Shown: positions 6,252 to 62,405 of the stretch, piece by piece
Layout of the letters: every line of letters starts with the position of its first letter
Numbering within the stretch: position 1 is the first letter of the stretch
Source: Pseudomonas phage HPP-Temi
DNA: 64,000 nt
Sequence record: PP968062.1
Reading direction: 5' to 3' (one strand)
Notes under the pieces: generated by a model
What the model saw: the letters and a program-made list of their open reading frames with translations, nothing else
What the model was told of the DNA's origin: nothing
Databases searched by the model: none
Program-made: the position numbers and the translations under genes

Positions 6252-6275
6252 AAAGCCTCCCCGAAGGGAGGCTTT
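6252..6275. terminator. hairpin aaagcctccc-cgaa-gggaggcttt, bidirectional
   Basis: Perfect 10-bp stem, 4-nt loop, T-run after it on both strands. Confidence 0.6.
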
Positions 6276-6282
6276 TATGTTG

Positions 6283-6543
6283 CTAACGATGCCCTTCGTG
6301 AGTATCGAACTCCAGATCCAATACCACGTTGGTGAATTCCTCCAGCGTACCTTCATCGAAGATACGAGGTTCACTGTCGTCACGATGCATCATACCGACA
6401 GGAGTCTGGTCCCGAAACACCATTAACAAGTCGTGTTTTACCACGACATGGTGATCTTCCCCTACGGAAAGATCTTGGATACGCTGCCAGCGGCTGCGCA
6501 GTAAGCTGCAAGCGACCCATACGGATTTCAAACGTTCAGCCAT
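6283..6543 (-). CDS. hypothetical small protein
   Basis: 86-aa ORF lying between two terminator hairpins. Confidence 0.35.
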   Translation of the reverse strand: MAERLKSVWVACSLLRSRWQRIQDLSVGEDHHVVVKHDLLMVFRDQTPVGMMHRDDSEPRIFDEGTLEEFTNVVLDLEFDTHEGHR

Positions 6544-6609
6544 TGTATTGCCCTCTTGGTTATTGAATTCATGTTGGTGATATAGGGCTAAGATACGTTA
6601 GAATATAAA

Positions 6610-6627
6610 GCCTCCCCGAAGGGAGGC
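6610..6627. terminator. hairpin gcctccc-cgaa-gggaggc
   Basis: Directly 3' of the thyA-like stop. Confidence 0.6.
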
Positions 6628-6634
6628 GTTTATG

Positions 6635-8068
6635 TTAAACAGCAACTTTACCAGCAATGTGCGGATGGAACTGGTAATCCAGGATCTCGTAATCTTCACG
6701 AGTAATATCCAGGAACGGCTTACCTTTGGCCTCAGGCTTGAAGCGGATGGTAGGAGTAGGATAAGTATTGCGGGAACGTTGCAGTGTAACTTGTTCTTCA
6801 TGGTTACTGTAGATATGGCAATCGCCACCAGTCCAGATGAACTCTTCTGCTACCATGTTAAACTGATTCGCCAACTGATGAGTCATCAACGAATAGAACG
6901 TGATGTTGAACGGATTCCCAAGGAAGTTATCGGAAGATCTTTGATAGAGCTGACAGCTGATCCCACGGGAAGGAGCTTTATGCTCATCCAACCAAGCTAC
7001 TACAGCCTCATCAGTAGCGGCCGCATCACCACGCCAAATCCTCAGATGGGCTTTGACTTGTTCTGCGTTACCGAACGGAGGTTGACCACGAGTAGTTCCA
7101 CCACTGTGTTGGTCGTGATAAGCATCCTCTTCGAATTGGCTTTGATCCAGAGCCTGCACTCTTTCGTCTACGGTCAGCTTACGAGTCCAGAACTGAATGA
7201 AGGCATGACACGGAGGCAATGCTTGATCTTCAACCAGACGAGGATCCCAGGCGCAGATGATAAGACGACGACTATCTGGGTTATGTTTAAGTTGCCACAG
7301 AAGTTCTTGAACCTGATCCACACGGCGACGGATAACACATTCATCTTTCGTGTAGTCTTCGCCAGGTACGTCAACTACGAACTTAAAGCCGCGCTTCTCG
7401 TAATTAGCCCAGTCTACTTTAGGAATGATACGAACATCATCGATATCACGCCAGGTTTTACCATAGACCGGACCAAGATCACCGCCAACTAAACGGAAGG
7501 CAGACAACAGACCATCGCTGTCTTTAATCACGATCTTTGCATCACCGATGACAATACGATATACACGTAGAGCCATTCCATAGTAGTCGAATGCATCGGG
7601 ACCAGGACCGAAACGACTTACATCGGCCCACGTCTTCAGATTAATTAGAAGTAGTGCCGGTTTGTCCTGTTCAGGATCAATCCACTTCCAATCGATATCA
7701 CCGATCTCATTGCTGAAATGCATCTCAAACGGAATGTTCTTGAACTTCTTCTGAACAGCTGTAGTCAGCCATTCGTCGGAAACGCGTTCGAATACTTCGG
7801 TACCCGGTTTAACCCATTCGTTCCAGATGGTGACGTTCTTGCTCAGGAGATATTCTAGGCGAGTGTCACCAGACTTCATCCAGTTGAGTTCTTCTTCAAC
7901 GGAAGGCAAGTGGATCTTCTTGGTGGTTACTACCGGAAGGTTTCCGTTACGGAGATCATAACGGAACTGCCTACCGAACAGAGAGGTCGTACCAGTGCCG
8001 GTACGATCCCCTTTGAATACACCGTACTTCTGTGTATCTTCCAGTAACTGTAGGTATTGATGCATCAA
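6635..8068 (-). CDS. thyA: Thymidylate synthase family (ThyA or dUMP hydroxymethylase-like) with three large insertions
   Basis: 477 aa. DRTGTGTTSLFGRQFRYDL, LPVVTTKK, DLGPVYGKTWR, PPCHAFIQFW (catalytic Cys), SCQLYQRSSDNFLGNPFNI and TGGDCHIYSNH align with E. coli ThyA. About 112 aa, 25 aa and 72 aa are inserted relative to the 264-aa enzyme. Confidence 0.8.
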   Translation of the reverse strand: MMHQYLQLLEDTQKYGVFKGDRTGTGTTSLFGRQFRYDLRNGNLPVVTTKKIHLPSVEEELNWMKSGDTRLEYLLSKNVTIWNEWVKPGTEVFERVSDEWLTTAVQKKFKNIPFEMHFSNEIGDIDWKWIDPEQDKPALLLINLKTWADVSRFGPGPDAFDYYGMALRVYRIVIGDAKIVIKDSDGLLSAFRLVGGDLGPVYGKTWRDIDDVRIIPKVDWANYEKRGFKFVVDVPGEDYTKDECVIRRRVDQVQELLWQLKHNPDSRRLIICAWDPRLVEDQALPPCHAFIQFWTRKLTVDERVQALDQSQFEEDAYHDQHSGGTTRGQPPFGNAEQVKAHLRIWRGDAAATDEAVVAWLDEHKAPSRGISCQLYQRSSDNFLGNPFNITFYSLMTHQLANQFNMVAEEFIWTGGDCHIYSNHEEQVTLQRSRNTYPTPTIRFKPEAKGKPFLDITREDYEILDYQFHPHIAGKVAV

Positions 8069-8403
8069 ACACCCCCGTCGTTAGAGGCTACTACCAGATC
8101 ACCCGGAAGACCCAGAGCTTTATGAGTGGCTGCTTCAACAGCTTTCAAGAGAGTCTCCATGTTGTTGGTAGGATGTCCGAGGTGAGGGTCAGTGAGGAAA
8201 CCGATCTCGAACTTTTGGGGTACCTGATCGATAGCTCCGAAATCTACATCGGGACTATTAACCGGATAACCGAGATGGATACCTTTGATCACTTTACGGT
8301 CATGACCGATAGCAATGAAATCCATAGTGGCGCGGTTATGGACTACTGCCCAGGCACCAGTGGATTGCAGTAGGTTACGAGTTACGATTTCAGAAATTGC
8401 CAT
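8065..8403 (-). CDS. hypothetical protein
   Basis: 112-aa ORF, tightly packed. Confidence 0.4.
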   Translation of the reverse strand: MAISEIVTRNLLQSTGAWAVVHNRATMDFIAIGHDRKVIKGIHLGYPVNSPDVDFGAIDQVPQKFEIGFLTDPHLGHPTNNMETLLKAVEAATHKALGLPGDLVVASNDGGV

Positions 8404-8788
8404 CTTCTACCACCTTCATGAACTTTGCGGTTACTTGGAGAACGATACCAGATTCGGCTCGGTCAGTGTCGCCATCGGATACGTAATGGATCTTACCGGC
8501 GTCTACCCAAACACGGGCGCCGTTAAGAGGGAAACCATCGGTAGCCATGTAATGGACTTCAGTGAAATCACCAACACTGTTCTCAGTGCGGGCTACACCC
8601 ATCAGGTGATCAACACCCATACTGGGAAGACCCATACCAGCGTTGTCGAAAGCCTTCACTTCAGTGAGACCCGTGATGTAATAACCACGACCGAGTGCAA
8701 CGGACATCTCGTAGTTATTAAAGGGAGTCAGGATATACCTGACTTCGTTGTCTTGAGGAAGCTTGATTGCATTACCCATTTTAAGCAC
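8390..8788 (-). CDS. hypothetical protein
   Basis: 132-aa ORF overlapping its neighbour by 14 nt. Confidence 0.4.
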   Translation of the reverse strand: MLKMGNAIKLPQDNEVRYILTPFNNYEMSVALGRGYYITGLTEVKAFDNAGMGLPSMGVDHLMGVARTENSVGDFTEVHYMATDGFPLNGARVWVDAGKIHYVSDGDTDRAESGIVLQVTAKFMKVVEDGNF

Positions 8789-10132: not shown

Positions 10133-10152
10133 GGAGCTCCCGAAGGAGCCCC
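10133..10152. terminator. hairpin gctcc-cgaa-ggagc (weaker)
   Basis: Intergenic, after an A-tract. Confidence 0.4.
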
Positions 10153-12315: not shown

Positions 12316-12335
12316 GCCCTCCCCGAAGGGAGGGC
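12316..12335. terminator. hairpin gccctccc-cgaa-gggagggc
   Basis: 8-bp perfect stem with a cataaag left arm. Confidence 0.55.
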
Positions 12336-14319: not shown

Positions 14320-14337
14320 GCCTCCCGTTAGGGAAGC
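14320..14337. terminator. hairpin gcctccc-gtta-gggaagc (1 mismatch)
   Basis: aaaaaa tract 5', cataaag arm. Confidence 0.45.
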
Positions 14338-14988: not shown

Positions 14989-15034
14989 GGCTGAGTCCTC
15001 AATAACTTATTATAGTGCCCAGCCGTAGCTGGGG

Positions 15035-15217
15035 TTATTCTTGTGCAGCAGCGATCCATTCGTGCATTCGGTTAGTGGTGAAGTACCCACAACGCGAATG
15101 ACGGATTTTTCGTTTAAACTCTTTTACTGCTTTTTGTTTCAGTTTTTCCGTGGGAGAATTCTTGTAAGCTGTAATGAAGCACGTGTAGGCATCCCACGCT
15201 TTGTCACGTTTGTTCAT
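15035..15217 (-). CDS. hypothetical small basic protein
   Basis: 60-aa ORF. Confidence 0.3.
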   Translation of the reverse strand: MNKRDKAWDAYTCFITAYKNSPTEKLKQKAVKEFKRKIRHSRCGYFTTNRMHEWIAAAQE

Positions 15218-15232
15218 TTTACGGCACTGGCG

Positions 15233-15427
15233 CTAGCTGTAACAGGTATAGCGATAAGGTCTATCTTTAACCTTAATCTCACACTCGTCGTCAGCAGACG
15301 TAATGTATTTCGGATAGGTCTCGTTGATTGGAATATCGACAGCATCTTTGAAAGCCATGCTGCCGATTAGAGCTTGTGCTGCTGCTCTGCCCAGATCACC
15401 GGTACCAACGATAAGTACGTCTCTCAT
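15233..15427 (-). CDS. hypothetical small protein
   Basis: 64-aa ORF. Confidence 0.3.
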   Translation of the reverse strand: MRDVLIVGTGDLGRAAAQALIGSMAFKDAVDIPINETYPKYITSADDECEIKVKDRPYRYTCYS

Positions 15428-16407: not shown

Positions 16408-16427
16408 GCCCTCCCTGAAGGGAGAGC
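16408..16427. terminator. hairpin gccctccc-tgaa-gggagagc (1 mismatch)
   Basis: Intergenic. Confidence 0.45.
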
Positions 16428-19535: not shown

Positions 19536-19603
19536 AAAAGAAATCTCCAGAGATTATACATTTTGATAATGTAGATCTAAGAAAAAATAAAAAGAAAGCG
19601 AAT

Positions 19604-19625
19604 GCTCCTACCCGAAGGTAGGAGC
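19604..19625. terminator. hairpin gctcctacc-cgaa-ggtaggagc
   Basis: 9-bp perfect stem. Confidence 0.55.
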
Positions 19626-19633
19626 AATATGCC

Positions 19634-23111: not shown

Positions 23112-23861
23112 TTAATGCCTCGGGATTCTATAGTAGTCAGGACCTGCTTGGTTATAGACGTAGTGATTGTGGTCTTTATCGTTAGGACCAGGGAATCGTT
23201 CCTGTGGATTACGATACGGGATCAATGCACGTCTTGCTGTGGCAAATACAGTTTCCTTGTGACGAGCTTTGTATTCACTGAGAACACGGGTCATGGTAAT
23301 ACAGGGCTTACATAACCCGCAGTGTTTATCACCAACCGGTGTCTCACATATCCAGATGTCGTTCAGTACTCTCTTATCCAACTCACGAAGGATATCGACT
23401 TTGTTCATACCGAGAAGAGGGAACTCAACTGGGATAGGGTCGTTAACACAGGCCACCTTTTGCAGATTGTACCAGGCGTCTTCGATGTAGCGTAGGTGGG
23501 ATCCGAAGTATGCACCGTCGTCAGCCACATAGCCGATTACGAGCTTACTATGTCTCGCTGAATCAGCAATAGCTAACGCACCAAACAACCAGGGTGCAAC
23601 TTGACCCCACTTGGTGTTATCACCTGTAAGCTGCGTACTCTTCAAACGTTCATATTGAGCTTGAACTTTATGCGGATAGAACCCAGCAAACTTCTCAAGG
23701 ATCACTTGACGCTGCTTAAGTTCTTGTGTCATCTTTTCTTCTTGTTGACCAGCATTGATGTACATGACATCCACCGGACCTTCTTGAAGAAGCTGTTGGA
23801 GCATGTAGGTGGAATCCAAACCACCAGAAAAGAGAATCAATGGGTTCATCGCTATTTCCAA
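23112..23861 (-). CDS. queC: QueC-like PP-loop ATPase (7-cyano-7-deazaguanine synthase family)
   Basis: 249 aa. PP-loop ILFSGGLDST is present, plus a C-terminal zinc-type cluster CETPVGDKHCGLCKPC as in QueC. Confidence 0.65.
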   Translation of the reverse strand: MEIAMNPLILFSGGLDSTYMLQQLLQEGPVDVMYINAGQQEEKMTQELKQRQVILEKFAGFYPHKVQAQYERLKSTQLTGDNTKWGQVAPWLFGALAIADSARHSKLVIGYVADDGAYFGSHLRYIEDAWYNLQKVACVNDPIPVEFPLLGMNKVDILRELDKRVLNDIWICETPVGDKHCGLCKPCITMTRVLSEYKARHKETVFATARRALIPYRNPQERFPGPNDKDHNHYVYNQAGPDYYRIPRH

Positions 23862-23876: not shown

Positions 23877-23892
23877 GGGAGCCGAAGCTCCC
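23877..23892. terminator. hairpin gggagc-cgaa-gctccc flanked by A6/T4
   Basis: aaaaaaGGGAGCcgaaGCTCCCcgtttt; bidirectional. Confidence 0.6.
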
Positions 23893-26740: not shown

Positions 26741-26773
26741 TTGATTTTCCTTTTAATGAGAGATGGCATAAAG

Positions 26774-26789: not shown

Positions 26790-26794
26790 GTATG

Positions 26795-41428: not shown

Positions 41429-41434
41429 TTCACC

Positions 41435-41977
41435 TTAGGAGTAGCGGACTTTAACGAGTTGCAGAAGCAGCTCTACAGCGTAGTTACCGTCGGCTTTGGC
41501 GATACCCGGCATTTGTGCACGGATGCCAGCCATGGCGGCAGCTTTGCGCTTCAGAATATTGCGTTCTTTGCCGTTCTCGATTTCAGCTACCTCGTAGATC
41601 AGTGTATTGACGGCGACGTTCTCAATGGAAGCATTGATACGAGCACCGGCGGTGTATTTGCGAACCAGTTTGCGCAGTTCAGCCTCCAGGTTCTGGCCAC
41701 GATATTGCTCGGCGTCCAGATAACCAGTTGCCAGTTCAGCGAAATTACGAACACCCGATTTACCAACCAGGAGATTGGTCAGGGTATCGACAGGCAGAGT
41801 GGCAGCCAATTGAGCCAGGTCGTTACCTTTTACTTCAGCGCGGGCCAGTTCCAGAACGGAGTCAACACCGAGGAGTTTCAGAGCGATTTTACGAACGATA
41901 GACATTATTGCGTTTCCTTTGTTAGAAGCGATCAGAAGTTTGTGCGAAGGAAGAGACCGTACGAGCGACCTCACCAT
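41435..41977 (-). CDS. hypothetical protein
   Basis: 180-aa ORF. Confidence 0.4.
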
Positions 41978-43898: not shown

Positions 43899-43927
43899 TT
43901 TGATTTCCTTTTTAAACGGAAAATAAA

Positions 43928-43945
43928 GCCTCCCCGAAGGGAGGC
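43928..43945. terminator. hairpin gcctccc-cgaa-gggaggc
   Basis: Lies between the 658-aa gene and the 2263-aa gene stop. Confidence 0.6.
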
Positions 43946-43952
43946 TCCATGA

Positions 43953-49900: not shown

Positions 49901-50744
49901 CCTTATTCTGCAATTCAAGGTTAGCTTCTTGAACTTTAACCAGATCACGGATACCCATGTAGGTACGGAACTGGAGCTCAAGACCTTTACGTTGAATTCC
50001 ATAGTTGACTTGTTCGTTATATCCTACAAGACGAGTTAGACTGTCTACAGCCATGCCCATCGAGCGGGACATAAAGTCGAAGCGCCCAGCGCTAACTTTA
50101 TCACGAATACCACGTTCTGCACGTTCAACCGCAGCTCGCGATATTGCACCCTGTTCACTACGCTGGAAGTTTTCTTTACTTACCAGTGTGTTTTGATCCA
50201 GAGCGGCTTTAATTACGTTTGCATCATCCTGTTCTTGACGACTGCGACGAATAGCGATTTGATCCCGTTGGGAATCAACCTCGTATTGGTACTGCTCAAC
50301 TTTCCGATTAAGACTATCGGAAATATTATCGTACAAGGCGTTTGGAATGCGATCTTTTAACTGAGGTAGATAATCCTGTGCTTTACGACCAAGATAGTCA
50401 AGGTCGGATGCATTAACTCGTTCAACCGTATCTTTGATATCGGTTACAGAAGCCATTACATCGTCATAGGCGCCAAACAAACGTGCAAAGCCATCCGGCG
50501 CAGCACTGCGCAAGAAGTTTCTTACGATGTCTTTGGTTTTCAATCCACCGAGGAAGCCCTCTTTCAGACCCGATTTGAATTCGGTAATTGGATCGCCAGG
50601 TTTGGCTCCAGGACCGAGATCATCAAACAGGTCATCCAGCTCATTCAGGTCAAGTACGCCAATTCGCCCCTGGGCATTTGTCCCAGCAGGTTTAGGCAAC
50701 CTGGTCTTTCTTGTAGCCATGGTCAACTCCATCGATATAAACAA
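43953..50744 (-). CDS. giant virion-associated protein (2263 aa) with C-terminal lytic transglycosylase (SLT) domain
   Basis: The SLT motif [22 protein letters not shown]...[12 protein letters not shown] lies near residues 1880-2050. Long Ala/Gly/Lys-rich low-complexity segments. The true start may be MATRKTRL at 50717. Confidence 0.75.
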   Translation of the reverse strand: [2263 protein letters not shown]

Positions 50745-50787
50745 TCATATCGTTTAGCTTTTTGTAACCCCTAAGAGGAAATTTGAA

Positions 50788-52440
50788 ATGAAGAAGGCTC
50801 TAGTCCCTTTCAACATTGACCTACTGATCCCCACAAAGGCTCAGCTTACAATGTTGGGGCAAGTAACTAGCCATGAGATCTTCGAAGGTACCGGTGGTAA
50901 CTTTCACGAGAAAGGTCTGTTCTCCGTAGAAATCTTCGGACGAATTGGATCCTCTGAACGTGAAGGTCGCTTCGGTTATATCAACATGGGTCTTGAAATT
51001 ATTCACCCGGTCATCTATCGTAACCTCATTAAGTTGAAGGCATTCTACGAAGATATCATCCTGGGTAAAGCTTTTGCTGTATTTGATCCGTCGATTAAAG
51101 ATTTCGTTCGTTCTAACGAGCTCGAAGGTAGAACTGGCTATGCCTTCTTCTTTGATAATTGGAAGAAGATCGACTTCGGTGAAACTAAGTCCTCTATTCG
51201 TCGTGTACGGGTTGAGCTGATGAAGAAGTACATGAGTAACTGTACCTTCAAGAACCTGCTCGTTATTCCCGCTGCATATCGTGAGGCCGAGATCGATGTT
51301 GATGGTCGTGTATCCATGGACGAGGTTAACGAACACTATCGTTACATGTTGAACCAGTCTTACGGTGTACCTGAATACTTCGGTCCCAATGATGACCTGA
51401 GCATTTATGACCGTAAACGGACTTCAATGCAGTTGACTGCTCTGGCGATCTATAACCACTACGAAAACCTGTTGTCTGGTAAAGGTGGATATATTCAACA
51501 GAAGTGGGCATCTCGACGTGTATTCAACGGTACTCGTAACGTTATCAGTTCGTTGGATACTAACGCAGCTGATCTCGACCAACCCAACCGTCCCAAGTTT
51601 AAAGATGCTGTAGTCGGTATTTATCAAGCAGCCGTATCGGTTAAGCCTAAAACTATTTATCATCTCCGGAATGGTGTTGTAGGTCAGGTATTCGACAGTC
51701 TGTCTAACCGTGTAGAACTGATAAACAAAAAGACCCTGAAACTTGAATGGGTTAACATCAGTAACGAAGAGATGGACCTTTGGGGTACACCAGAAGGTCT
51801 GGAACGTGTTATCGGTGAACTGAAGGTAATTGAGAAGCGGTCTCGTGCTATTGAGATCGGTGGTTATTACCTGGCTCTCGTGTACCTCGATGACAAACAG
51901 AACTTCAAGGTCTTCCGTGACATCACTGAAATGCCTAAGAATTTGGATCACAAATTCGTTCGTCCTATCTCTTATGCAGAGTTGATTTACCTGAGCGGAT
52001 TACCTATGTGGAAAAGAAACTCCGCATTCGTAACTCGTTATCCCGTTGAGAACTATAACAGTTCTATCCCTGTCAAGATGTACGTTAAGACCACCGTTAA
52101 AGGTGAGATGCGTTATCCACTGGGTTGGGATTGGGAACGTGATACCAATGCCGAAATCGCTCTTGAGTATCCGATCATCACTATCAACGAGCCTGCACAA
52201 TGGCACGACTCGACATCTATCTCTCCGTCCATTCTTGCTCCTCTTGACGCAGACTTCGACGGTGACACTGTGTCGTTCAACGCCGTGTATTCCAAAGAGG
52301 CAATTGAAGAATCTGATAAGTTCTTCAAATCTCGTCTAGCCTATATAAAGGCTGGTGGTGGTCTCGCATTCAGTGTCAACATCCACACGCTTAACCTAAC
52401 TCTCCGGTACATGACTGGGGAACCGAAAAGTAGGGATTAA
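50788..52440 (+). CDS. multisubunit RNA polymerase beta-prime-like subunit, N-terminal fragment
   Basis: 550 aa. NEPAQWH (like NRAPTLH), LDADFDGDTVSFNAV (like NADFDGDQMAVH) and ASRRVFNGTRNVISS (like GKRVDYSGRSVI) are present. Confidence 0.6.
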   Translation: MKKALVPFNIDLLIPTKAQLTMLGQVTSHEIFEGTGGNFHEKGLFSVEIFGRIGSSEREGRFGYINMGLEIIHPVIYRNLIKLKAFYEDIILGKAFAVFDPSIKDFVRSNELEGRTGYAFFFDNWKKIDFGETKSSIRRVRVELMKKYMSNCTFKNLLVIPAAYREAEIDVDGRVSMDEVNEHYRYMLNQSYGVPEYFGPNDDLSIYDRKRTSMQLTALAIYNHYENLLSGKGGYIQQKWASRRVFNGTRNVISSLDTNAADLDQPNRPKFKDAVVGIYQAAVSVKPKTIYHLRNGVVGQVFDSLSNRVELINKKTLKLEWVNISNEEMDLWGTPEGLERVIGELKVIEKRSRAIEIGGYYLALVYLDDKQNFKVFRDITEMPKNLDHKFVRPISYAELIYLSGLPMWKRNSAFVTRYPVENYNSSIPVKMYVKTTVKGEMRYPLGWDWERDTNAEIALEYPIITINEPAQWHDSTSISPSILAPLDADFDGDTVSFNAVYSKEAIEESDKFFKSRLAYIKAGGGLAFSVNIHTLNLTLRYMTGEPKSRD

Positions 52441-52442
52441 CC

Positions 52443-55400
52443 ATGCGTTTGAAAATTCATCAGTTTCTGAAGAACTACAGCCTTCGAAACTCCGGCGAAC
52501 TATTGCGTCCGCGTTTGTTCCCGTTAGCGAAGCTGGAACTGCCTCTTGAGGTAGTATATCAGTTCCTTGATGACAACGCTGCTGTAAAGGGTCCGAGTCA
52601 ATCGGACCCCCTCTTTGCCAAGCTGCAAGGAAAGGTGTTCATTGAGCACGTTACACAGCTGGAGACTCTTGATGGTAACGCTCGGCGTACTTCGCTTATT
52701 CCGACTACCCTTGAAGCAGACTTCCGTCGTCAGCACCGTTTCTTCAAACCACTGCGTAAAGATGCGGCTGTAAAGCTTAACACACAGAACGTTGCTGTAG
52801 TCAACTACAGCATGCTGAACCCGCTTTGGAAATACCAAGCCAACTTCAAGTCGAACTGGTATCGCTGGAGCAACAATACTGCTACCTTCTGGAAAGGTGT
52901 AGCAGATATGCATAAACGTTTCGGCTGGAACCAATTCATCGAACTCCATATCCCGGAATCCATTCCGACGTTTAACGAGTTCAAGATGTTGGAGCGTGGT
53001 ACCACTCAGGCATTGCTTGAGAAGTTCCGTACCAATGCAGCACTGAACGTTTTTGATCTGTATCGTTTCCTCGGTGAAAACCGTGCTTCTTCTTATCTGT
53101 CTACTTTGCCGAAAGAAGCATACGAGAAGATTAACTTCCTGATTCGTGTACAGAACAACTTCTTCGTTATTAACCTGGGTCAACTGGAACAATGGCGCGA
53201 TGCTCCGGAAGTTATTGCCGAGCAAGAAACTGTAGCCACTGAAAGCTTCGTTGATGAACTGGGTCTTGAAGTCTTCTATAAACCTGACGTATTACAACGT
53301 CGCATGATCAGCCTGTTGACTACTCTCGTTGAGTACAACAATGGTAACGATACTCTCATGGAGGTCGAACCAGAGGCACCTAAGATCACCGATATGGTTG
53401 AACCCGAAGACAAGTCCACTGACGAAGAAGAAGAAGCTGAAGAAGTTACTGAGCGTGCAGAAGAAGCTGAGGAAGGTGTCGATACAGATGCTATCGATGA
53501 TACATCCGAATCTGGTTCTAATGTTAGCTCCCTGCTTGACCTGGGTATGCTCGAAGTTGTATTTGAGCCGCCACCCGAGTCCGAGCTTGAGAAGACTACT
53601 CTTGTCATCGAGAAAGATCCGCTTGAGACAGCAGAAATTGCTAAAGCACCTACTCTCAAAGTAGAAACTGCTCCGGTAACTAAATCGATTATCCCAGCTT
53701 TCAGTAGCGGTGATGCGTTGGTTGATCCGGTTGGTCAGAAAGCTTATGACCTGTACCAAGTCGGTATGATCTCTGCCCGTGCATTTGAACAGGCTGTAGA
53801 TGACTCGGCTATGTATAAGTCTATTCCGGATCCGTTTGGTTCGGGTAAGACTATTGCAGAAGCAATGACATATGAAAAATCTGACTTCGTAATTCCATCT
53901 GAACAATTCGCTGACAAAACCACCATCACTGACAAGTCGATGCTGGGTGCAGTTCACAAAGCGATGATGCGCAAGTACACGAAGACTCTTCTACCGAAAG
54001 ACATCATGCAATCTATCCTGTCCATTCAGGCTCAGGGTGTAGCTGTTACTGATGTGCGTATGGAAGAAGTCCGTGATGCGATGAACCACTACCAATCGTT
54101 CACTGTTACTGTGAAACCGATTCGTGGTCGTCCTTCTCAACTGCGTTTCCGTATTCCGGTTATTGACCGGGATGGTCGTTTCCGTTCCAATGGTGTTACT
54201 TATCGTCAACGTCTGCAACGCGCGGATATTCCGATTCGTAAAGTCAACCCACTTAAGGTTGCACTCACCAGCTATTACAACAAGACTTTCGTAAATCGTT
54301 CTGAGCGTGCTGAGAACAACTACGATACTTGGCTGATCCGTCAGATCGGTGTACGTGCTCGTGATAACAATGACGTGTCGGTAACTGATGTACGTTATGC
54401 TGAACTGGACCAAGCTCAATTCGTTCTGCCTCGGGTATACTCTGCTCTGGGTCGTGCTTACCGTTCGTTCAAGAATGGTGCGAATGAGTTCTACTTCAAG
54501 TTCGACGATCATGCCGAGTACTTCCACAAGACCTACGGGATTTCCGTAGAAGCGCTTGAGAAGGATGGAATGGTTGTTGTGGGTTCCCATAACCGTCTAC
54601 CGATTTTGGTTGACCAAGGTTCTCAGTTCTACGTTAAAGAAGGTAACGATCTCGAACCGATGGGGACGATGATTGATATCCTGGGTCTGAACCAAGTGAA
54701 AGCTCCTCTGGAAGCAATCCTTGTTTCTGTGGCCAACAAAGAACTACCCCTCGGTTTCATCTTGGGTTATCGTCAAGGTCTGTCTGGTCTACTGGATACG
54801 CTTGGCGTTCAATATCAAAGTCATCCTCGTGGTACTCGTATTAGCGTTAGCCCCGATGACTACACTCTGGCATTCTCTGACGAGATCCTGGTGTTCAGTC
54901 GTCAAGACTACCGTGCTACTCTGGTACTCGCTGGCTTGAAGCGTTATCATCAATCTCTGAAGAAGTTCTCTCGTTGGGATTTCGATCGACGTGACGTCTA
55001 CTTCCGTCTACTAGAGGAAGCTGGTCTCTCTGCACGTTATACTCGTGAGATCGATGGCCTGTTTACTTCCTTCGTTGACCCGATCACTAAAGGTCTGCTT
55101 GAAGAGATGGGAGAGCCGACTGATTTCCAAGGTCTGCTATACCGCTCTGTAGAGCTGCTGACTAATGACTGGTCTCCTGCCGAGGTAGACGGTGCATACA
55201 TGCGCTATCGCGGCTATGAACGTATGGCTGGGGCTATCTATGGCAGTCTGAACCGTGCTGTTCGTATATACAACAACCGTGAAGGTTCTGCCGATCAACA
55301 GATCGTCATGGATCAACACGAAGTATGGCGTAAGATTGCATCTGACCCGACCGTTGCTACTATTGAAGACTCGAACCCTATCGCTAACTTGCGCGAGCAA

Positions 55401-55664
55401 GAAGCCATGACCTACCGTGGTGATGGTGGCCGTGGGCCGGACTCGATGGTTGCCCGTACACGTATCTATCACGAGTCTGATGTGGGCGTTGTATCTGAAT
55501 CTACTGTTGACTCTGGTGACGTGGGTGTAATTGCCTATCTGTCTCCTGATGCCAACTTCAACAGCATGCGTGGTACTACCCGTATGTTCGAGAAAGGCAA
55601 AGACGGTACGGCTAAGATGTTGTCTACTGGTGCACTCACTGGTGTAGCTACAACCAACGATGAT
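52443..55664 (+). CDS. RNA polymerase beta-like subunit, exon 1 (ends at the intron)
   Basis: Translationally coupled to the upstream gene (TAAccATG). The C-terminal TYRGDGGRGPDSMVARTRIYHESDVGVVSESTVDSGDVGVIAYLS aligns to beta region D ([39 protein letters not shown]). Has an acidic insertion. The 3' boundary is approximate. Confidence 0.5.
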
Positions 55665-56003
55665 TGAGGTTATTGAATCGGAAAGTCTTTTCAGATTTGA
55701 GAAACCTTTGGTCCCAATGAATAGCGATATTCATTTGGAATCTCCCTTAATTGCTGGAACCTCCTTAGAGCTAATCTAACCACTGCGAGTCGAAAGACAA
55801 AGCCAAGGTTTGAAAATAGATTAGATTGGACAATCAGCAGCCAAGCTCCGTATAGGAGAAGGTTCAACGACTAACCGCTTATCACGGTGTACCTGCCAAG
55901 TGGTGGGGAAATAGGGAGCCTCTCAAGTAGAGGAAGATATAGTCTCCTCTTTAGGGAAACCTAAAGCAGTCGAAAGACGGAATTGATCTAACGAATCAAT
56001 TTG
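55665..56003 (+). ncRNA. group I self-splicing intron (about 340 nt, no internal ORF)
   Basis: Core elements: P aattgctggaa (~55757), Q aatcagcagcc (~55840), R ggttcaacgactaa (~55867), S aagatatagtctcc (~55934). P with Q and R with S are mutually complementary. Boundaries are approximate (+/-20 nt) and were chosen so that the length is a multiple of 3, the 5' site follows a U and the 3' site follows a G. Confidence 0.75.
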
Positions 56004-57152
56004 AAGACAAGGCCGAAACGTATCAACTTCGTTTCTATTCAGCAACAGCAAGGTATCTATGCAGACGGTTACGAGGTTACTCCTCTCCGTACTGGCTACG
56101 AGCAGATCATCGCTCAACGCACTAGCTCTATCTTCGCATCCGCTGCTGAACAAGATGGTGAAGTTATTGCTGTAGATGCTCACGGTATTACCGTCAAGTA
56201 TGCCGATGGGGAAATCTTCAGTTCTCAACTGGGTACCGTTCATGGTACCGCTGCGGGTGTAAACTATCCGCACACTCTGACCACTGGCCTTAAGAAAGGT
56301 GATAAGTTCAAACGTGGTGATACTCTGGCTTTCAATAGCAAGTATTTCACTGAGGACCGCTATACTCCTGGACAGGTTCTGTGGAAAGCAGGTGTGATGG
56401 TTCGTGTTGCATTCTGCGATAACCTTGACACGCTTGAAGACGGATCGGTAATCAGCCGTGACGTAGCGATCAAGCTGAATACTCAGACTACTGACATTAA
56501 GAACATCACTGTTCGCTTTGATCAGGCAATCGAGAATTTGGTCAAGGTTGGGGATCACGTAGACTTGGATTCAATTCTATGTACTATTCAAGACCCCGAA
56601 ATGGCCAAGAACTCTCTGTTTGGTGCCGCGAGTATTGAAACCCTGAAGAAACTTTCCGCTAACGCTCCGCGAGCGAAAGTTGTAGGGACTATCTCTAAGA
56701 TCGAATGTTACTATCATGGTGACATCGAAGATATGTCTGACAATCTTCAGAAGGTAGCTCGTGCTTCTGATAAAGAGAGAGCCGATAGGGCCAAGTCGTT
56801 GAACGAACCGGAATTCACTGGTGAAGTCGACGCATCCTTCCGTGTTAAAGGTCAGATGCTTGAACCTGACAACATGGTTATCCGAATCTACATCGACCAT
56901 GATATCCCTTGTGGTACTGGTGACAAAGGTGTAGTTGCGAACCAGATGAAAACTGTGTTCTCTCGGGTAATGGATGGTCGGAACGAGTGTGAAGATGGTA
57001 CTCCGATTGGTCTGATCTTCGGTAACACATCGGTCGAAGAACGGATGGTCATGTCCCCTAAATTGATTGCGACTACCACAATCTTGCAGCAAGCACTTTC
57101 TCAGCATATAGCTGCGCTCTATCGAGGAACCACAAATGCAAAATCAAAGTAA
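56004..57152 (+). CDS. RNA polymerase beta-like subunit, exon 2
   Basis: Same reading frame as exon 1. Contains AFNSKYFTEDRY (like AFMPWNGYNFEDSI) and GTGDKGVVANQ...ECEDGTPIGLIFGN...RMVM (like [33 protein letters not shown]). Confidence 0.5.
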   Translation, partial: KTRPKRINFVSIQQQQGIYADGYEVTPLRTGYEQIIAQRTSSIFASAAEQDGEVIAVDAHGITVKYADGEIFSSQLGTVHGTAAGVNYPHTLTTGLKKGDKFKRGDTLAFNSKYFTEDRYTPGQVLWKAGVMVRVAFCDNLDTLEDGSVISRDVAIKLNTQTTDIKNITVRFDQAIENLVKVGDHVDLDSILCTIQDPEMAKNSLFGAASIETLKKLSANAPRAKVVGTISKIECYYHGDIEDMSDNLQKVARASDKERADRAKSLNEPEFTGEVDASFRVKGQMLEPDNMVIRIYIDHDIPCGTGDKGVVANQMKTVFSRVMDGRNECEDGTPIGLIFGNTSVEERMVMSPKLIATTTILQQALSQHIAALYRGTTNAKSK

Positions 57153-57330
57153 CAACGTAGTACTCAGTCAGAACATCGCCGTTCTGACTGCTGCTGCCGA
57201 ACTTGGAGCCGAAGCTTTGCTTCGCTCCATCGGCGGCGACACCTCGGCAGCTACTCTAGAAGGTGAGTATCTGACCAAAGAAGATATCCAGGCGGCTATC
57301 GTTGCCCGTATGTGCAAATACCTCGGTTAA
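57136..57330 (+). CDS. hypothetical small protein
   Basis: 64-aa ORF overlapping the exon 2 end by 17 nt. Confidence 0.25.
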   Translation: MQNQSNNVVLSQNIAVLTAAAELGAEALLRSIGGDTSAATLEGEYLTKEDIQAAIVARMCKYLG

Positions 57331-57342
57331 TTAGGAGTCAAC

Positions 57343-59043
57343 ATGTTTAATCCCGAAACTCTGGACGCTGTCCGTGATGCGGCCCAAGCGTTCACTGAAC
57401 AAGAACGTGTTCTGACTATTCCGAACCCCGAGTTCCCTCTGGCTGTCTATGCTGACGGTTTCAACTGTGAATCCGAAGGCAACAAAGTTGCAATGTCCGA
57501 TGAACTGGCTGCTTCCGTAGAGTCTCACTTCATCGAAAGCAACGTAGAAGCTCCCGAGAACGTGAACGAAGAGCGCGAAGCAATCATCAGCAATATGCAC
57601 ACCGCTATTGCTAAGATTCAGTTCAACACTCAGAACGTTATCATCCCGGCTATCAAAGCCATGGCTACCGATTACGCTAGCCGTCAAAACGTAAGTGGTC
57701 AAGCAGACTGCGACGTTAGCACTTTCAACTACGATCCGATCCACAACGATCCTCGTCTGGTGAACCACATTCAGACCCGCTATGCCAAAGTACGTCCTCT
57801 TCCGGAATATCGTACTTTCATGCTGCGTCCTATTGATGCCGCTGCTATCATCGAGATGGTATCGATCAATAACCCGCACCTGGATCAAGAGCAGGTTACT
57901 GAATGGGCTCTGAAGATCCCGGCTCAACGTGTAGAGAACGTATGGAGTGAACTGTTCGGTACCGCTCGTGGTCTGACTGTTTCTAACCTGAGCTTCATTA
58001 ACCCGAACGCCTTCCCGTTCAATCTGGATGAACTGACCCTTGGTTACTTCATCTGTGGTCACTACATCGACAATCCTCAGGAAGTTCCTGGTGAGTCTGT
58101 GACTTCTGATGAATGGGAGCAAACTGTACGTCTGCTTCACGAAATGCTCGGTTTCTACATCATCCGTGCCTATGAGAATCGTCTGGAGATGCGTGAGTCC
58201 AATACTCTCGTTCTGCGTTACGAAGCTCATCGTCCGGTTGAGAACCGTCGTGTACTCGTTACTCTGAACGGTGACGTAGCTGAAAGCTGGCTGGTTAAAG
58301 GTGGTAGCGTAGAAGCTCTGCTGGGTGCTGCTATTGATGGCGGTAACGTTGTTCATGCTCAAGGCATTGATGCCCGTGCTGAACATTACATCCGTCGTTG
58401 GACTGCTACCTACCCGCTGATCAAACAGGCTGCTCTGGACTACGCTGAAAGCCGTCGTCGTCAAGACGTAATCGATACCTTCCTGACCCATTGCGGTGAT
58501 GGTCCTCTTCGTGAGATGAACATCGGTAACGTACGCGAGATTCTGGCTGCTGCAATGCGTTTCGTTCGTAGTGAAGACCTCGATAATCCGTACTGTGTAT
58601 TCAGTAACCTGATCTGCCGTACCTATTACACTGAGCCGATGTACAAAATGTACCTCGACACTATCGATGAGTATGGTCAGAACTTCCCTGCCGCTGAACT
58701 GCGTGAGCTGAACACCCAGGCTCTGATCTCTCTGATCGCTATCTTCCAGGCTCAGCAGATCAAAGTAGAAATGTTCAATCCTGATGTTGATCCTAACGCT
58801 ACTCTTCCTCAACCGGAAGCTGTTCCGGAAGAACTCTCTGAACCGACTGGTGAAGAAGTATCCGAAGCAGTAGGTGATGCTATTGAAGGTGAAGGCCCTC
58901 TGGCTGAAACTCCGGAAGTAGAAGACGAAGAAGATCCTTACGCTGACACGCCTGCTGAAACCGAGACTGAAGTAGTCGAAGTAGAAGAGGAAAAAACCAG
59001 TGAAGAAGAAACTGAATCGGAAACTGAAGAAGAACAAGCTTAA
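57343..59043 (+). CDS. hypothetical protein with highly acidic C-terminal tail
   Basis: 566 aa. AGGAG SD. The C-terminus has an EEVSEAVGDAIEGEG...ETEEEQA acidic repeat region. Confidence 0.45.
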   Translation: MFNPETLDAVRDAAQAFTEQERVLTIPNPEFPLAVYADGFNCESEGNKVAMSDELAASVESHFIESNVEAPENVNEEREAIISNMHTAIAKIQFNTQNVIIPAIKAMATDYASRQNVSGQADCDVSTFNYDPIHNDPRLVNHIQTRYAKVRPLPEYRTFMLRPIDAAAIIEMVSINNPHLDQEQVTEWALKIPAQRVENVWSELFGTARGLTVSNLSFINPNAFPFNLDELTLGYFICGHYIDNPQEVPGESVTSDEWEQTVRLLHEMLGFYIIRAYENRLEMRESNTLVLRYEAHRPVENRRVLVTLNGDVAESWLVKGGSVEALLGAAIDGGNVVHAQGIDARAEHYIRRWTATYPLIKQAALDYAESRRRQDVIDTFLTHCGDGPLREMNIGNVREILAAAMRFVRSEDLDNPYCVFSNLICRTYYTEPMYKMYLDTIDEYGQNFPAAELRELNTQALISLIAIFQAQQIKVEMFNPDVDPNATLPQPEAVPEELSEPTGEEVSEAVGDAIEGEGPLAETPEVEDEEDPYADTPAETETEVVEVEEEKTSEEETESETEEEQA

Positions 59044-59112
59044 TTGATAACCTCCGGTATCCTTCGGGGTACCGGAGTGTGTCAACTTTCCTTTTTCTAA
59101 GAAGAGACTTAT

Positions 59113-59835
59113 ATGAACGTTAGGCAATTAACTCGTGATGCTCAACGTGTCAACGCGAATCTGATTGAACTGGAAGATGGTGGTATTGCTACTAACCTTC
59201 CATGCAAGATCCAGATCCCTGAACGTTTTGCTGCAAAGAACCTAGCTGTGCTGGGTAGTGAAGTCTTCATCTTCGGGTTCTTCCCGATTATCATGAATGA
59301 AGAGTTCTATGCGGTGAACAACACCATCGCCATGATGCGCATTCTCCCGAGCTCTACTGAACGAGTTGTTGTGGAGAATGAACCTTACTACGAATTCAGT
59401 TTCGAGAAAGGGGACAAAGTTTTCTATTCGACCCATCTGGTAGTTAACGATACGTTGACTTACTACATGTACGACGAGTTCGTATCTAAAGGAAACATTC
59501 CTTGGTACATGAACTACTACGACATGGCTAAGATGTTCGAGACTGCGAAGGAACACGCAGATACCTTCATTGGTGGTCGTTCTATCATCGAGTTGATTAT
59601 CTCTACTATCGCTCGTGATCCGGATGATATGACAAGATTGTATCGCCACATTCTGGCGCGACATGAAGACGTTAAAAATAAACCACCGGTAACCGTGCCT
59701 TTCCGTTCGGTTATCTGGAACACCTCTGATACCACCTCGAAACTTAACGGTGCTTACTTCAGTGACGCTATTAACTCCGCTCTGGTGAACCCCAGCGAGA
59801 AGGTAGAAGTAATTGAAGAACTGTTGAGGACGTAA
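59113..59835 (+). CDS. hypothetical protein
   Basis: 240-aa ORF. Confidence 0.45.
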   Translation: MNVRQLTRDAQRVNANLIELEDGGIATNLPCKIQIPERFAAKNLAVLGSEVFIFGFFPIIMNEEFYAVNNTIAMMRILPSSTERVVVENEPYYEFSFEKGDKVFYSTHLVVNDTLTYYMYDEFVSKGNIPWYMNYYDMAKMFETAKEHADTFIGGRSIIELIISTIARDPDDMTRLYRHILARHEDVKNKPPVTVPFRSVIWNTSDTTSKLNGAYFSDAINSALVNPSEKVEVIEELLRT

Positions 59836-59850
59836 CACGGAGTTGCAGCA

Positions 59851-60684
59851 ATGCATCCTTTGGCACAATCTTCTTTTGGTGTCCAAAATTCTCCGCAGAA
59901 CCAAGTTCGTATCGGTTGCACCATGCTAGCCGGTACAGACAAAAAAGGAATTCTTGCGCCGAATGCGGACGGTTATTACACTGTAGTTCTGGGTGCCTAT
60001 GGTACACATAACTCCGCTGGTATGTTCTATGACGAAGCCAGTGGCGTTGCCATGTTCGATCCGAACTCTTCTTTGATGCGGCGCCTTAAGAAAGGTGTAC
60101 TCTTCATGGAGTTCAAACATCCGGAACCGTTTACAGATCTGATGATCGATGGTCGCGTTGTTCGTCAACCGATGGATGATCGTCAATACCTACAACGTAT
60201 TCGTATGATCGACGATAACCGGGTATGTGCACACATCCGTGCTCTGACTATTGTCCCCGGTAAGAATGAGAATGGTAAGACCGTTAAGATGGTCGTAGGC
60301 GAAGTTAAGCCTTACGGTCCCTTCGGTCACATTTTCAAAGAGTCGCTGGATAACCCGAGTATCAATACTTATTGCTCCGTACGTTCTATCACTCAAGATG
60401 ATGTAATGCGTGGCATCAAGTACACTCGTGAAATCGCCACATGGGACTTCGTAGGTGAAGGCGGTATCTACATCGCTAACAAGTATACCTCTCCTGCACT
60501 GGAAAGCTTCTCTGATACTGAAGTCATCATCACTCCCGCTACCCTGTGGAAGATGGAAGACGAAGCTAAGAAGCGTGCTAACATCGGTATGGAATCTGAT
60601 CCTAACCTTGATGTTACTGACCTGATCCAACAACTAGGTTGGTCTCGTCGTAAGCCTGTACGTGTACCTGCTTACATGCGATAA
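59851..60684 (+). CDS. hypothetical protein
   Basis: 277-aa ORF, last of the plus block, followed by an A-tract+hairpin terminator. Confidence 0.45.
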   Translation: MHPLAQSSFGVQNSPQNQVRIGCTMLAGTDKKGILAPNADGYYTVVLGAYGTHNSAGMFYDEASGVAMFDPNSSLMRRLKKGVLFMEFKHPEPFTDLMIDGRVVRQPMDDRQYLQRIRMIDDNRVCAHIRALTIVPGKNENGKTVKMVVGEVKPYGPFGHIFKESLDNPSINTYCSVRSITQDDVMRGIKYTREIATWDFVGEGGIYIANKYTSPALESFSDTEVIITPATLWKMEDEAKKRANIGMESDPNLDVTDLIQQLGWSRRKPVRVPAYMR

Positions 60685-60702: not shown

Positions 60703-60724
60703 GCCCTCTCCAAACGGAGAGGGC
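60703..60724. terminator. hairpin gccctctcc-aaac-ggagagggc after A9 tract
   Basis: Convergent terminator between the plus block end and a minus gene. Confidence 0.6.
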
Positions 60725-61045: not shown

Positions 61046-61130
61046 AGGTTCTATCCCATGTGAAGAAAGTCTGAGTTTAACCGAATCAGACGTATCGCAA
61101 ACAGGGTCTGGATGCTGTCACATCCTTCCC

Positions 61131-61150
61131 AATTCACGTTTGTAATATAG
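61131..61150 (-). promoter_or_regulatory. candidate phage promoter motif CTATATTACAAACGTGAATT (minus-strand reading)
   Basis: Plus strand reads aattcacgtttgtaatatag, 19 of 20 identical to 20123-20142. Confidence 0.4.
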
Positions 61151-61182
61151 TTCTCAATTAAGTTAGATTAAGACGGCATATT

Positions 61183-61203
61183 GCCCTCCCTTCTGGGGAG
61201 GGC
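61183..61203. terminator. hairpin gccctccc-ttctg-gggagggc
   Basis: ctttatg arm on the right. Confidence 0.55.
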
Positions 61204-61212
61204 TTTATGTCG

Positions 61213-62337
61213 CTATTGAATAGCAGCATCCGGATAGAACGACTTGATCAGTTCTACAGGATTTTCCATCTTGTAGAAAGGAGCGGTCAGCATTGCTTCA
61301 CGATGAACCTCGCTACTAAGGATCAATGTGTTCGCATCTTCAGAAGCATAGCTTAAGAAGTACAGGTTCCATACCGGCAGACCTTGACGACGAGTAATAA
61401 ACCAATCGGGTTTAAGTTGATTCAAGATACGTACCAAGGTAGCCATCTGGTCAGCGTAATTAGGTCGCTCTTGAGCGCCAGTTGGATCAGGGATAGCTGG
61501 ACCAGTTGGGTTAGCCGGATCAGGAATCATTTTAGGGAATGGACCACCAGGAACACATTCCTCAGGGAAAACGTAGTTCTGTAGCAACTGGGCTGGGAAG
61601 TTAGGGTTCTCAGCAATCAATGCCGATACACCGCCGTGCAACATCAATCTTTCGATTGTGGCAAGGTCAGTACTAGGGCTAATGCCAGCAGAAGCTCGCT
61701 TAACAACAGAGAATCTGAAATCATCATCATAGTCATATTCATACTTGTTGTCCACCCATTTAGCGCCGAATGTTTCATCGACCAGGTCAGGAATACCCCA
61801 AGCCGTAACTTCTTCTACTATACCTTTCATCAGGGCAGCTTCTGCACCCAAATCGAATACACGTAGCAGGGAGTTATTAGTCAGGTCACCCATGAATCCG
61901 ATGATGCTATTCACACCACCGAAGTTACCATCGCGGAAGTAATAGTCCTTTTGATTAAGGACCATCTTCACGCCATCGAGCATGTCTGTAGCTTTGCGTA
62001 CGTAGCCTGTCCCTGTATCCTCGCCTGTGAGCTCTTCCATGATGGATCGCTCAACTTCCGATGCGAGGCCAACGATAGAACCACGAGAGCCTTTAAGCGC
62101 GTCCTGGATGCGGTTACGGGCCATATTCAGATCTATGCCGTTAGACATGATCTTACTACCGATACCTTTAACTACACCAAGAGACTTTTGAATCAGTTCA
62201 TCTGCACCTACACCGAACGCAGTAATCTTAGAAGCCAGTTGGTTCTTCAGATCAGCATTTTGTTCTGTATAGGCATCTACCTCTTTTACTGCGGCATCCG
62301 GCAAACCTGTAAAAGAAGGAATCGCTAGTTGTACCAT
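61213..62337 (-). CDS. hypothetical protein (374 aa)
   Basis: Long ORF with a hairpin 3'. Confidence 0.45.
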   Translation of the reverse strand: MVQLAIPSFTGLPDAAVKEVDAYTEQNADLKNQLASKITAFGVGADELIQKSLGVVKGIGSKIMSNGIDLNMARNRIQDALKGSRGSIVGLASEVERSIMEELTGEDTGTGYVRKATDMLDGVKMVLNQKDYYFRDGNFGGVNSIIGFMGDLTNNSLLRVFDLGAEAALMKGIVEEVTAWGIPDLVDETFGAKWVDNKYEYDYDDDFRFSVVKRASAGISPSTDLATIERLMLHGGVSALIAENPNFPAQLLQNYVFPEECVPGGPFPKMIPDPANPTGPAIPDPTGAQERPNYADQMATLVRILNQLKPDWFITRRQGLPVWNLYFLSYASEDANTLILSSEVHREAMLTAPFYKMENPVELIKSFYPDAAIQ

Positions 62338-62383
62338 TTGAATTTCACCAAAAAAAAATAAGAGTCATACAATGATCGCCATC

Positions 62384-62405
62384 GGGCTCCCCGTTAAGGG
62401 AGCCC
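62384..62405. terminator. hairpin gggctccc-cgttaa-gggagccc after A9 tract
   Basis: Intergenic. Confidence 0.5.

Follow-up and report, generated by a model that had tools for sequence, protein, structure and literature searches.

We analysed 64,000 nucleotides of Pseudomonas phage HPP-Temi (sequence record PP968062.1), a stretch that we refer to at its full length as the window and in which the gaps between genes carry a family of G+C-rich hairpins flanked by a TATG-like word; we read these elements as probable transcription terminators. The window shares ~90% DNA identity with the Pseudomonas jumbo phages phiHQ, PA1C and PS119XW (Pawinskivirus), and its virion protein gp215 matches that of PhiPA3 at 77% and those of phiKZ-like phages at ~68% identity. 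Gene names are those of the PS119XW annotation, carried over by tblastn. The genes are arranged in long one-way runs:

1-28403, minus strand: array of mostly nucleotide-metabolism and replication genes
28921-34500, plus strand: gene block
34538-50744, minus strand: gene block
50788-60684, plus strand: gene block, after which minus-strand genes resume

Convergent junctions fall at ~34500/34538 and 60684/60734. A phiKZ-type virion RNA polymerase beta subunit is encoded in the window (phrog_3148, E = 0), and on this ground the phage should share the host-independent transcription of phiKZ. Matches to sigma-70-type promoters are fewer than chance provides (19 vs 30.6 ± 5.5 in shuffles, positions 26000-45999), a deficit that fits a phage not using the host polymerase, in which case the host enzyme would not be the relevant one.

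A 32-nt fold scan of both strands, followed by curation, yielded 24 intergenic hairpins, all within the 10% of the sequence that is non-coding and all placed at gene 3′ ends; 23 of them lie within 6252-62405, where about 22 had been predicted. The family is real and far above chance. The window contains 12 perfect GC tetraloop hairpins whose stem is 6 bp or longer, compared with 0.61 ± 0.69 in 100 dinucleotide shuffles, and the 18-mer GCCTCCCCGAAGGGAGGC (GCCTCCC-CGAA-GGGAGGC) is present in five copies compared with none in shuffles. The original prediction rightly noted that this core is shared, although it counted four copies: in addition to those on the plus strand at 6255, 6610, 40819 and 43928, a fifth stands at 34511 as the reverse complement. 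Its description of the hairpins as near-identical was too strong, given 19 distinct stems among the 24. The hairpins at 34511-34528 and 60703-60724 do sit, as it proposed, exactly between convergent genes, gp229(+)/gp228(-) in the first case and protease gp208(+)/gp207(-) in the second. No Rfam family covers any of the hairpins, the sole match in the window being a group I intron, and a generic intrinsic-terminator scan of 26-46 kb returned 22 hits vs 15.3 expected and caught only part of them. The complete set is:

2394-2409, minus strand: GGGGAC-UUCG-GUCCCC (sense), between two minus-strand open reading frames (ORFs); no TAT tail; kept in phiHQ and BRkr
6255-6272, minus strand: identical core GCCUCCC-UUCG-GGGAGGC; sense tail UUUAUUUCC, antisense TTTTATGTTG; left copy of a duplicate around an inserted gene
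6610-6627, minus strand: identical core, directly after the thymidylate synthase (gp274) stop; sense tail UUUAUAUUC, antisense GTTTATGTT
10133-10152, minus strand: GGGGCUCC-UUCG-GGAGCUCC; G·U wobble on the sense strand only
12316-12335, minus strand: GCCCUCCC-UUCG-GGGAGGGC followed by UUUAUGUCGU; two mismatches to the 30-nt phiKZ terminator consensus (below)
14320-14337, minus strand: GCUUCCC-UAAC-GGGAGGC followed by UUUAUGCC; sense-only G·U wobble
15018-15033, minus strand: CCCAGC-UACG-GCUGGG; borders a 300-bp indel seen in comparison with PS119XW and phiHQ; no sense TAT tail
16408-16427, minus strand: GCUCUCCC-UUCA-GGGAGGGC followed by UUUAUUCCGU; compensatory stem GCCTGTCC/GGACAGGC in relatives
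19603-19626, minus strand: 10-bp stem with UUCG loop; antisense tail ATATGCC; early-promoter-like motif after it, at 19566-19578
23877-23892, minus strand: GGGAGC-UUCG-GCUCCC followed by UUUUUUAUUUC, a classic U-tract
26773-26788, minus strand: GCUCCC-UUCG-GGGAGC; TATG on both sides, sense UUUAUGCC and antisense AGTATGTT
28664-28682, plus strand: GCCCGGC-UCAAG-GCCGGGC; TATG on both sides; follows gp232 in relatives and is here the edge of a 1.8-4.5 kb deletion
34511-34528, no single strand: two-way terminator between convergent gp229(+) and gp228(-); identical core with UUCG on the plus strand; TTTATGTTG on plus, ATTTATGCC on minus
35720-35735, minus strand: GGAGCC-UUCG-GGCUCC followed by UUUUAUUUCG; antisense side AGTTATTTT
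36307-36324, minus strand: GCUCGCC-UUAG-GGCGGGC followed by UUUAUGCC; sense-only G·U wobble
37304-37323, minus strand: GGAGUCCC-UUUG-GGGACUCC; antisense tail ATTATGTCG; loop differs among relatives
38080-38097, minus strand: GGGUUCC-UUCG-GGAACCC followed by UUUAUGUCA; compensatory stem changes in relatives
39451-39470, minus strand: UGGGGCUC-UACG-GAGCCCCA; no TAT tail
40819-40836, minus strand: identical core followed by UUUAUGUUCC; early-promoter-like motif after it, at 40781-40793
43928-43945, minus strand: identical core followed by UUUAUUUUCC, between gp214 and virion protein gp215
59052-59077, plus strand: 11-bp stem with UUCG loop on plus, in the plus-strand array from gp210 to gp209; sense strand more stable
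60703-60724, no single strand: two-way terminator between convergent protease gp208(+) and gp207(-); GATATGTTG on plus, TTTATGCTT on minus; loop AAAC
61183-61203, minus strand: GCCCUCCC-CAGAA-GGGAGGGC; TATG on both sides; early-promoter-like motif after it, at 61142-61154
62384-62405, minus strand: GGGCUCCC-UUAACG-GGGAGCCC; no TAT tail; indel-variant stem in relatives

Position counts straight after the stem give the sense-strand consensus T-T-T-A-T-(G/T)-Y-Y. The word TAT(G/T)YY is present on 17 of the 24 sense sides, starting at +3 in 13 of these, and on 12 of the 24 antisense sides. Its TATG form (nnTATG, +3 to +6 from the stem) occupies 19 of 48 sides, always with YY next, where ~0.1 would be expected; the background rate of TATGYY in the window is 0.00085 per position and strand. 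On the 29 motif-bearing sides the fourth base is G in 19 and T (TATT) in 10. TATG stands on both sides in just five hairpins (26773, 28664, 34511, 60703 and 61183), and all six sides of 34511, 60703 and 28664 carry the tail. In the relatives TATGYY is kept and two spacer bases are changed at 28664, 19603, 34511 and 60703. Palindromic arms reading CATAAAG on the left and CTTTATG on the right had been proposed; a TATG flank does accompany many sides, but the exact pair CATAAAG-N(10-40)-CTTTATG has no hit in the window, and the real arms are looser. The arms do not extend the stem, a possibility ruled out by their inability to pair at 6610 and 12316 and by spacers to the stem that differ between the two sides. 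The two arms are independent signals.

Hairpin and tail together correspond to a mapped element of phiKZ. ONT-cappable-seq (Oxford Nanopore Technologies, ONT) of that phage delineated 133 termination regions, among which 61 predicted intrinsic terminators share one motif, with the consensus BCCYCCCCHWWDGGGRRGGBYTTATKYYGT, a stem-loop with TTAT behind it (Putzeys et al. 2024, PMC10914365); the terminators of phage 201phi2-1 are dominated by a very similar motif, 'motif A' (PMC11512511). With at most three mismatches, the 30-nt phiKZ consensus matches the window four times and shuffles not at all, in an ungapped comparison to which copies with a 7-bp stem cannot be aligned. At phiKZ position 23527 we find GCCTCCCTTCGGGGAGGC (GCCTCCC-TTCG-GGGAGGC) followed by TTTATGTTGT, an identical 18-mer core, and the first 50 kb of phiKZ contain the same hairpin family, with CATAA...ATTATG arms at the convergent sites there. 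The elements of the two phages are alike in a CCYCCC-type G+C stem, a loop of ~4 nt and a YTTATKYYGT tail, in their sense placement downstream of genes at gene 3′ ends, in having two-way versions at convergent genes, and in belonging to phages with their own multisubunit polymerase. They differ in that stems here are mostly 7 bp, compared with 8 bp in the consensus, and that the loop is mainly UUCG, compared with HWWD; moreover, the present phage belongs to another genus (Pawinskivirus-like), and its elements are known from sequence alone.

Start-site and termination tables of phiKZ, with sequences, are available in a bioRxiv supplement (10.1101/2023.10.13.562163). We took nucleotide 60 of the -60 to +40 strings as the termination site, with an accuracy of ±2 nt owing to length errors from optical character recognition. 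The mapped phiKZ RNA 3′ ends lie on or just past the hairpin-adjacent TATG (...UUUAUG[U], UUAUG[C]), and the two-way terminator pairs T051/52, T059/60 and T070/71 are spaced 32 nt apart. The hairpins described here are thus best regarded as intrinsic-type terminators at which multisubunit RNA polymerases of the phage itself would stop, and as the form that the phiKZ motif takes in the Pawinskivirus lineage; to this reading we assign a probability of roughly 80%. The predicted terminator function, two-way in several cases, is supported by the sense placement at gene 3′ ends, the match to the phiKZ motif and the both-strand tails at both convergent sites.

Strand asymmetries of loop, stem and fold energy show that the sense transcript is under selection as RNA. 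Of the 21 hairpins in one-way arrays, 13 read UUCG in the sense direction and none reads it in the antisense direction (p = 2.4e-4), and UACG occurs twice. The CGAA-type loop of the original prediction is accurate as letters, but not as an RNA loop: most arrays lie on the minus strand, so that the RNA of the transcribed strand has UUCG as the complement of these letters, and TTCG appears on the plus strand at 59052, in the plus-strand array, and at the convergent 34511. The closing pair is C-G in all 24 hairpins, and 20 have a tetraloop. Five stem pairs are not Watson-Crick pairs; read on the sense strand, every one is G·U and none is A·C. In ViennaRNA folds the sense strand is the more stable in six hairpins and the less stable in one; the program assigns equal energy to CUUCGG and CCGAAG loops, and the strands differ only for G·U-bearing stems. 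Stems co-vary among the copies, with several Watson-Crick pair types at each position, and comparison with the orthologues in PS119XW, phiHQ and BRkr reveals compensatory stem changes at 16408, 38080 and 62384; at 16408, for instance, GCCCTCCC/GGGAGAGC here becomes GCCTGTCC/GGACAGGC in the relatives. Across the four phages compared, the hairpin positions are orthologous and stable.

Loops flip or drift between close relatives at 60712-60715, 19613-19616, 37312-37315 and 61191-61195, the stems remaining fixed. The loop of the convergent 60703 terminator is AAAC here, CGAA in PS119XW and phiHQ, and TTCG in BRkr. Such flips suggest either loop inversion by template switching or a shifting dominance of one strand.

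The strand asymmetry reports an RNA-level function, and this would fit trimming as well as termination. The hairpins might mainly be RNA 3′-end stabilisers or processing stops, the polymerase reading through and the transcript, once cut downstream, being shortened as far as the UUCG hairpin; C(UUCG)G hairpins have exceptional stability and stop 3′ exonucleases, and an ONT termination call needs only a read drop of at least 20% across the site. A protective hairpin, however, needs no conserved downstream tail, nor a tail on both strands at convergent sites. The transcription-unit table of phiKZ shows units bounded at these sites, and ARNold classed most phiKZ sites with the motif as intrinsic terminators (PMC10914365). 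We consider stabilisation or processing as the main role to be very unlikely.

Several points weigh against the terminator reading. The sense TAT tail is absent at 2394, 15018, 19603, 37304, 39451, 59052 and 62384. The U-tract is short (UUUAU), and several sides have agUAUG, gaUAUG or aaUAUG instead, so the tail is not a textbook U-run; canonical bacterial intrinsic terminators are recognised by a U-run with five or more U among the eight nucleotides that follow the stem. For the added stability of UUCG we rely on the experimental literature and not on the ViennaRNA computation. The phiKZ termination sites used represent about one third of the terminator table, the start sites are P001-P130 of 149, and ONT 3′ ends do not fully discriminate between termination and the trimming of a 3′ end up to a stable hairpin. 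For HPP-Temi itself, we infer termination from homology of motif and context, and likewise which polymerase the hairpins would stop.

The TATG beside the stem could be read in a second way, which the original prediction raised, as a phiKZ-type late promoter. In phiKZ the late promoter consists of TATG with the start at G and is recognised by the non-virion RNA polymerase; any single substitution in TATG strongly reduces its activity (Yakunina 2015, PMC4666361; PMC12809450), and GP123, the beta-like subunit, has a pocket that accommodates the non-template TATG as a single strand (PMC4666361; PMC12809450). Were the hairpin-adjacent TATG a working promoter of this kind, transcription would stop at each element and begin anew at the G, perhaps on both strands. 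This would account for the fixed offset of TATG at +3 to +6 on 19 of 48 sides vs ~0.1 expected and for its retention in relatives even where flanking T's are lost; the ~21-90 nt from the G to the next start codon would leave room for a 5′ untranslated region with a Shine-Dalgarno site, and the phiKZ promoter is, after all, just TATG with the start at G. The phiKZ maps speak against it: none of 130 start sites (P001-P130) falls on the G of a hairpin-adjacent TATG, in a check that included >15 such sides located in the first 50 kb of phiKZ, and mapped 3′ ends are found there instead. The TATT on 10 of the 29 motif-bearing sides is hard to reconcile with a promoter that one substitution cripples. 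Within the one-way arrays of the window TATG is as common on the antisense side, with no gene to express; the hairpin before virion gene gp215 carries TATT, not TATG; and the phiKZ reference late promoter P119L has no upstream hairpin. What is shared with the late promoter is the letters TATG beside many hairpins on either strand, whereas the tail here goes on as YY and its G alternates with T, as does not occur in late promoters. Taken together, the phiKZ start and 3′-end maps, P119L, the G/T alternation and the antisense TATG speak for transcript release by the terminator at TATKYY, and not for a start there, and leave a working late promoter at these positions very unlikely. Intergenic TATG away from the hairpins is not enriched (28 sites in ~12 kb of strand, near background), and a late-promoter map could not be built from the window sequence alone.

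The hairpin at 28664, in a divergent region where no transcript would need ending, was considered as a two-way promoter and rejected: in PS119XW it follows gp232 in a one-way array, and its divergent context here is due to the 1.8-4.5 kb deletion. Separately, a stand-alone CGATATG lies at 50743-50746 on the minus strand. The gap of 43 bp that it occupies separates the divergent genes gp214 and gp213; the gp214 ATG (2256 amino acids) follows 26 nt downstream, with a GGAG ribosome site between, and gp213 has no plus-strand TATG. It is plausible that this motif upstream of gp214 represents a genuine late promoter.

An extension of the terminator reading would join termination and late initiation in the same word. 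TAT(G)YY may act as a sequence-specific pause or release signal when it stands 2 nt behind a stable RNA hairpin and as a late promoter when it stands alone, in both cases through the non-template TATG pocket of the non-virion polymerase. The GP123 pocket holds single-stranded non-template TATG with the G in the active-site register, the phiKZ 3′ ends lie on that G or 1-2 nt after it, and the register of TATG to the stem is kept even without a U-run. As UAU|G, the word is also consistent with Y(-1)G(+1), the general consensus for pausing by multisubunit polymerases. Set against this, G is replaced by T on 10 of 29 motif-bearing sides and the published consensus has K there, early transcripts come from the virion polymerase, and ONT 3′ ends are accurate only to a few nucleotides. 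The idea is tentative and we think it rather unlikely; if true, it would explain the fixed TAT(G)YY register on both strands, the survival of the word without a U-run and the location of the phiKZ 3′ ends.

Returning to the intrinsic-type terminator, we propose that the RNA of the transcribed strand would fold into a 6-11 bp G+C stem with a C-G closing pair and, usually, a very stable UUCG tetraloop, and that the transcript would be released within the UUAU(G/U)YY tail, ~5-9 nt past the stem. About half of the elements have a tail on the other strand too and would stop transcription from both directions. A two-way stop would be needed at convergent gene ends; elsewhere it could plausibly curb antisense read-through, given a late promoter of 4 bp. 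Bidirectional bacterial terminators likewise consist of a G+C hairpin with an A-rich 5′ side and a U-rich 3′ side, capable of acting on both strands, and UUCG tetraloops with C-G closing are used at gene ends in the C(UUCG)G intercistronic hairpins of phage T4. The present elements differ from both in having a UAU(G/U)YY word in place of a run of at least 5 U, and in that the polymerases are non-canonical phage enzymes.

The original prediction also envisaged a combined terminator-promoter cassette. This holds for a subset of the hairpins, by virtue of a separate AT-rich early promoter motif, and not for the adjacent TATG. Scanning for AGATNTATATTAC-like motifs with at most two mismatches, we found an early-type AT-rich promoter motif (...CTATATTAC) 25-33 nt downstream, in the sense direction, of 19603, 40819 and 61183, and a weaker one at 6610; hairpins bearing such a motif are those with a long gap to the next gene. 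Taken as a whole, the pattern shows no enrichment in the window compared with shuffles (8 hits vs 5.2). The three clearest cases are:

19566-19578, minus strand: early-promoter-like AGATCTACATTAT, 25 nt downstream of hairpin 19603 and upstream of gp252
40781-40793, minus strand: early-promoter-like AAATCTATATCAC, 26 nt downstream of hairpin 40819 and upstream of gp218
61142-61154, minus strand: early-promoter-like AGAACTATATTAC, 29 nt downstream of hairpin 61183 and upstream of gp207

A similar arrangement is seen in phiKZ, where many of the 50-nt regions upstream of early starts open with a terminator tail (P001, P012, P017, P028, P099) and the early promoter (...AGATCTATATTAC) lies ~30-35 nt after the hairpin. 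Late starts P049 and P075 use a second GCTATG, 11-13 nt after the terminator stem, and other late starts, P006, P016 and P054, lie 25-30 nt downstream. At the subset of hairpins with an early-type promoter 25-33 nt on, terminator and promoter would thus form one intergenic module. The best early-promoter-like match free of a hairpin, ACATCTATATTAC (28439-28451, minus strand, one mismatch), falls in a divergent region where the long minus-strand array begins, 36 nt before the start of gp236.

Such modules may sit at junctions of gene gain and loss. The hairpins at 6255 and 6610 are exact duplicates around a 324-bp insert, at a place where PS119XW, BRkr and phiHQ have a single hairpin; the insert encodes an 86-amino-acid phage protein (6286-6543, minus strand; phrog_23594, E = 6e-47), and the whole of 6255-6627 looks like a gene-plus-terminator cassette inserted by recombination at a hairpin. 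A 300-bp insert (15044-15345) begins 11 nt from hairpin 15018, a QueC-like gene (23127-23836) that is absent from phiHQ ends 41 nt from hairpin 23877, and a 1.8-4.5 kb block (gp232-235 in PS119XW) is missing immediately to the left of hairpin 28664, at 28516-28655. At 6255/6610, 15018 and 28664 an indel edge is at most 11 nt away from the hairpin; other indels are not near hairpins. The enrichment is modest and, as gene-sized indels end in intergenic DNA anyway, only suggestive.

These junctions, the duplicate hairpin around the gene inserted at 6255/6610, the indel edges at most 11 nt from 15018, 28664 and 6610, and the five identical copies could alternatively mean that the hairpins are repeats acting at the DNA level, REP/MITE-like mobile palindromes or recombination sites with a main role in genome rearrangement. 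Mobile elements of this kind are difficult to square with orthologous, stable positions across four phages, and neither terminal repeats nor target duplications accompany the hairpins. The strand-specific UUCG and the sense-only G·U pairs reflect selection on RNA and not on duplex DNA, and the indel-edge enrichment is modest given the intergenic location. A principal role in rearrangement seems to us highly improbable, the least probable of the explanations weighed here.

The modules of terminator and early promoter resemble the composite promoter-early stem-loop (PeSL) cassettes known from T4-like phages (Arbiol 2010, PMC2839356; Comeau 2014, PMC4122927). Both place an early promoter behind a stem-loop terminator within one short intergenic module; PeSL cassettes are found at indel or gene-swap junctions between close relatives, and the modules here may be so too. 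The sequences are unrelated, however, and the promoter here would serve the phage virion polymerase, not the host sigma-70 enzyme; furthermore, a promoter accompanies only a subset of the hairpins here, and a recombination role is only suggested.

Two further differences from the relatives lie within genes. A group I intron (RF00028, 70.5 bits, E = 7e-16) at 55665-56012 on the plus strand, with the Rfam match at 55681-55966, splits the virion RNA polymerase beta-subunit gene (PS119XW gp212 homologue, phrog_3148). Exon 1 ends at 55664 (amino acid 1074) and exon 2 starts at 56013 (amino acid 1075), the insertion being precisely 348 nt; the intron is not in PS119XW, phiHQ or BRkr and is without an endonuclease ORF. 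The DarB-like/SNF2 helicase gene lacks, at 29397-29403, ~1030 bp that PS119XW, phiHQ and BRkr have, and its N-terminal part also differs, giving a protein of 704 amino acids here vs 1049.

For a phiKZ-like therapeutic-candidate phage that is unannotated, the hairpins would provide a ready map of transcription-unit boundaries, and TATG beside them should not be annotated as a late promoter. The terminator word of phiKZ, a hairpin followed by UUAUKYY, is shared across genera, and the TATKYY tail, in fixed register on both strands, would offer a concrete, testable handle on termination by jumbo-phage polymerases. The modules of terminator and early promoter at putative indel junctions hint that gene shuffling of the PeSL type may also occur in jumbo phages.

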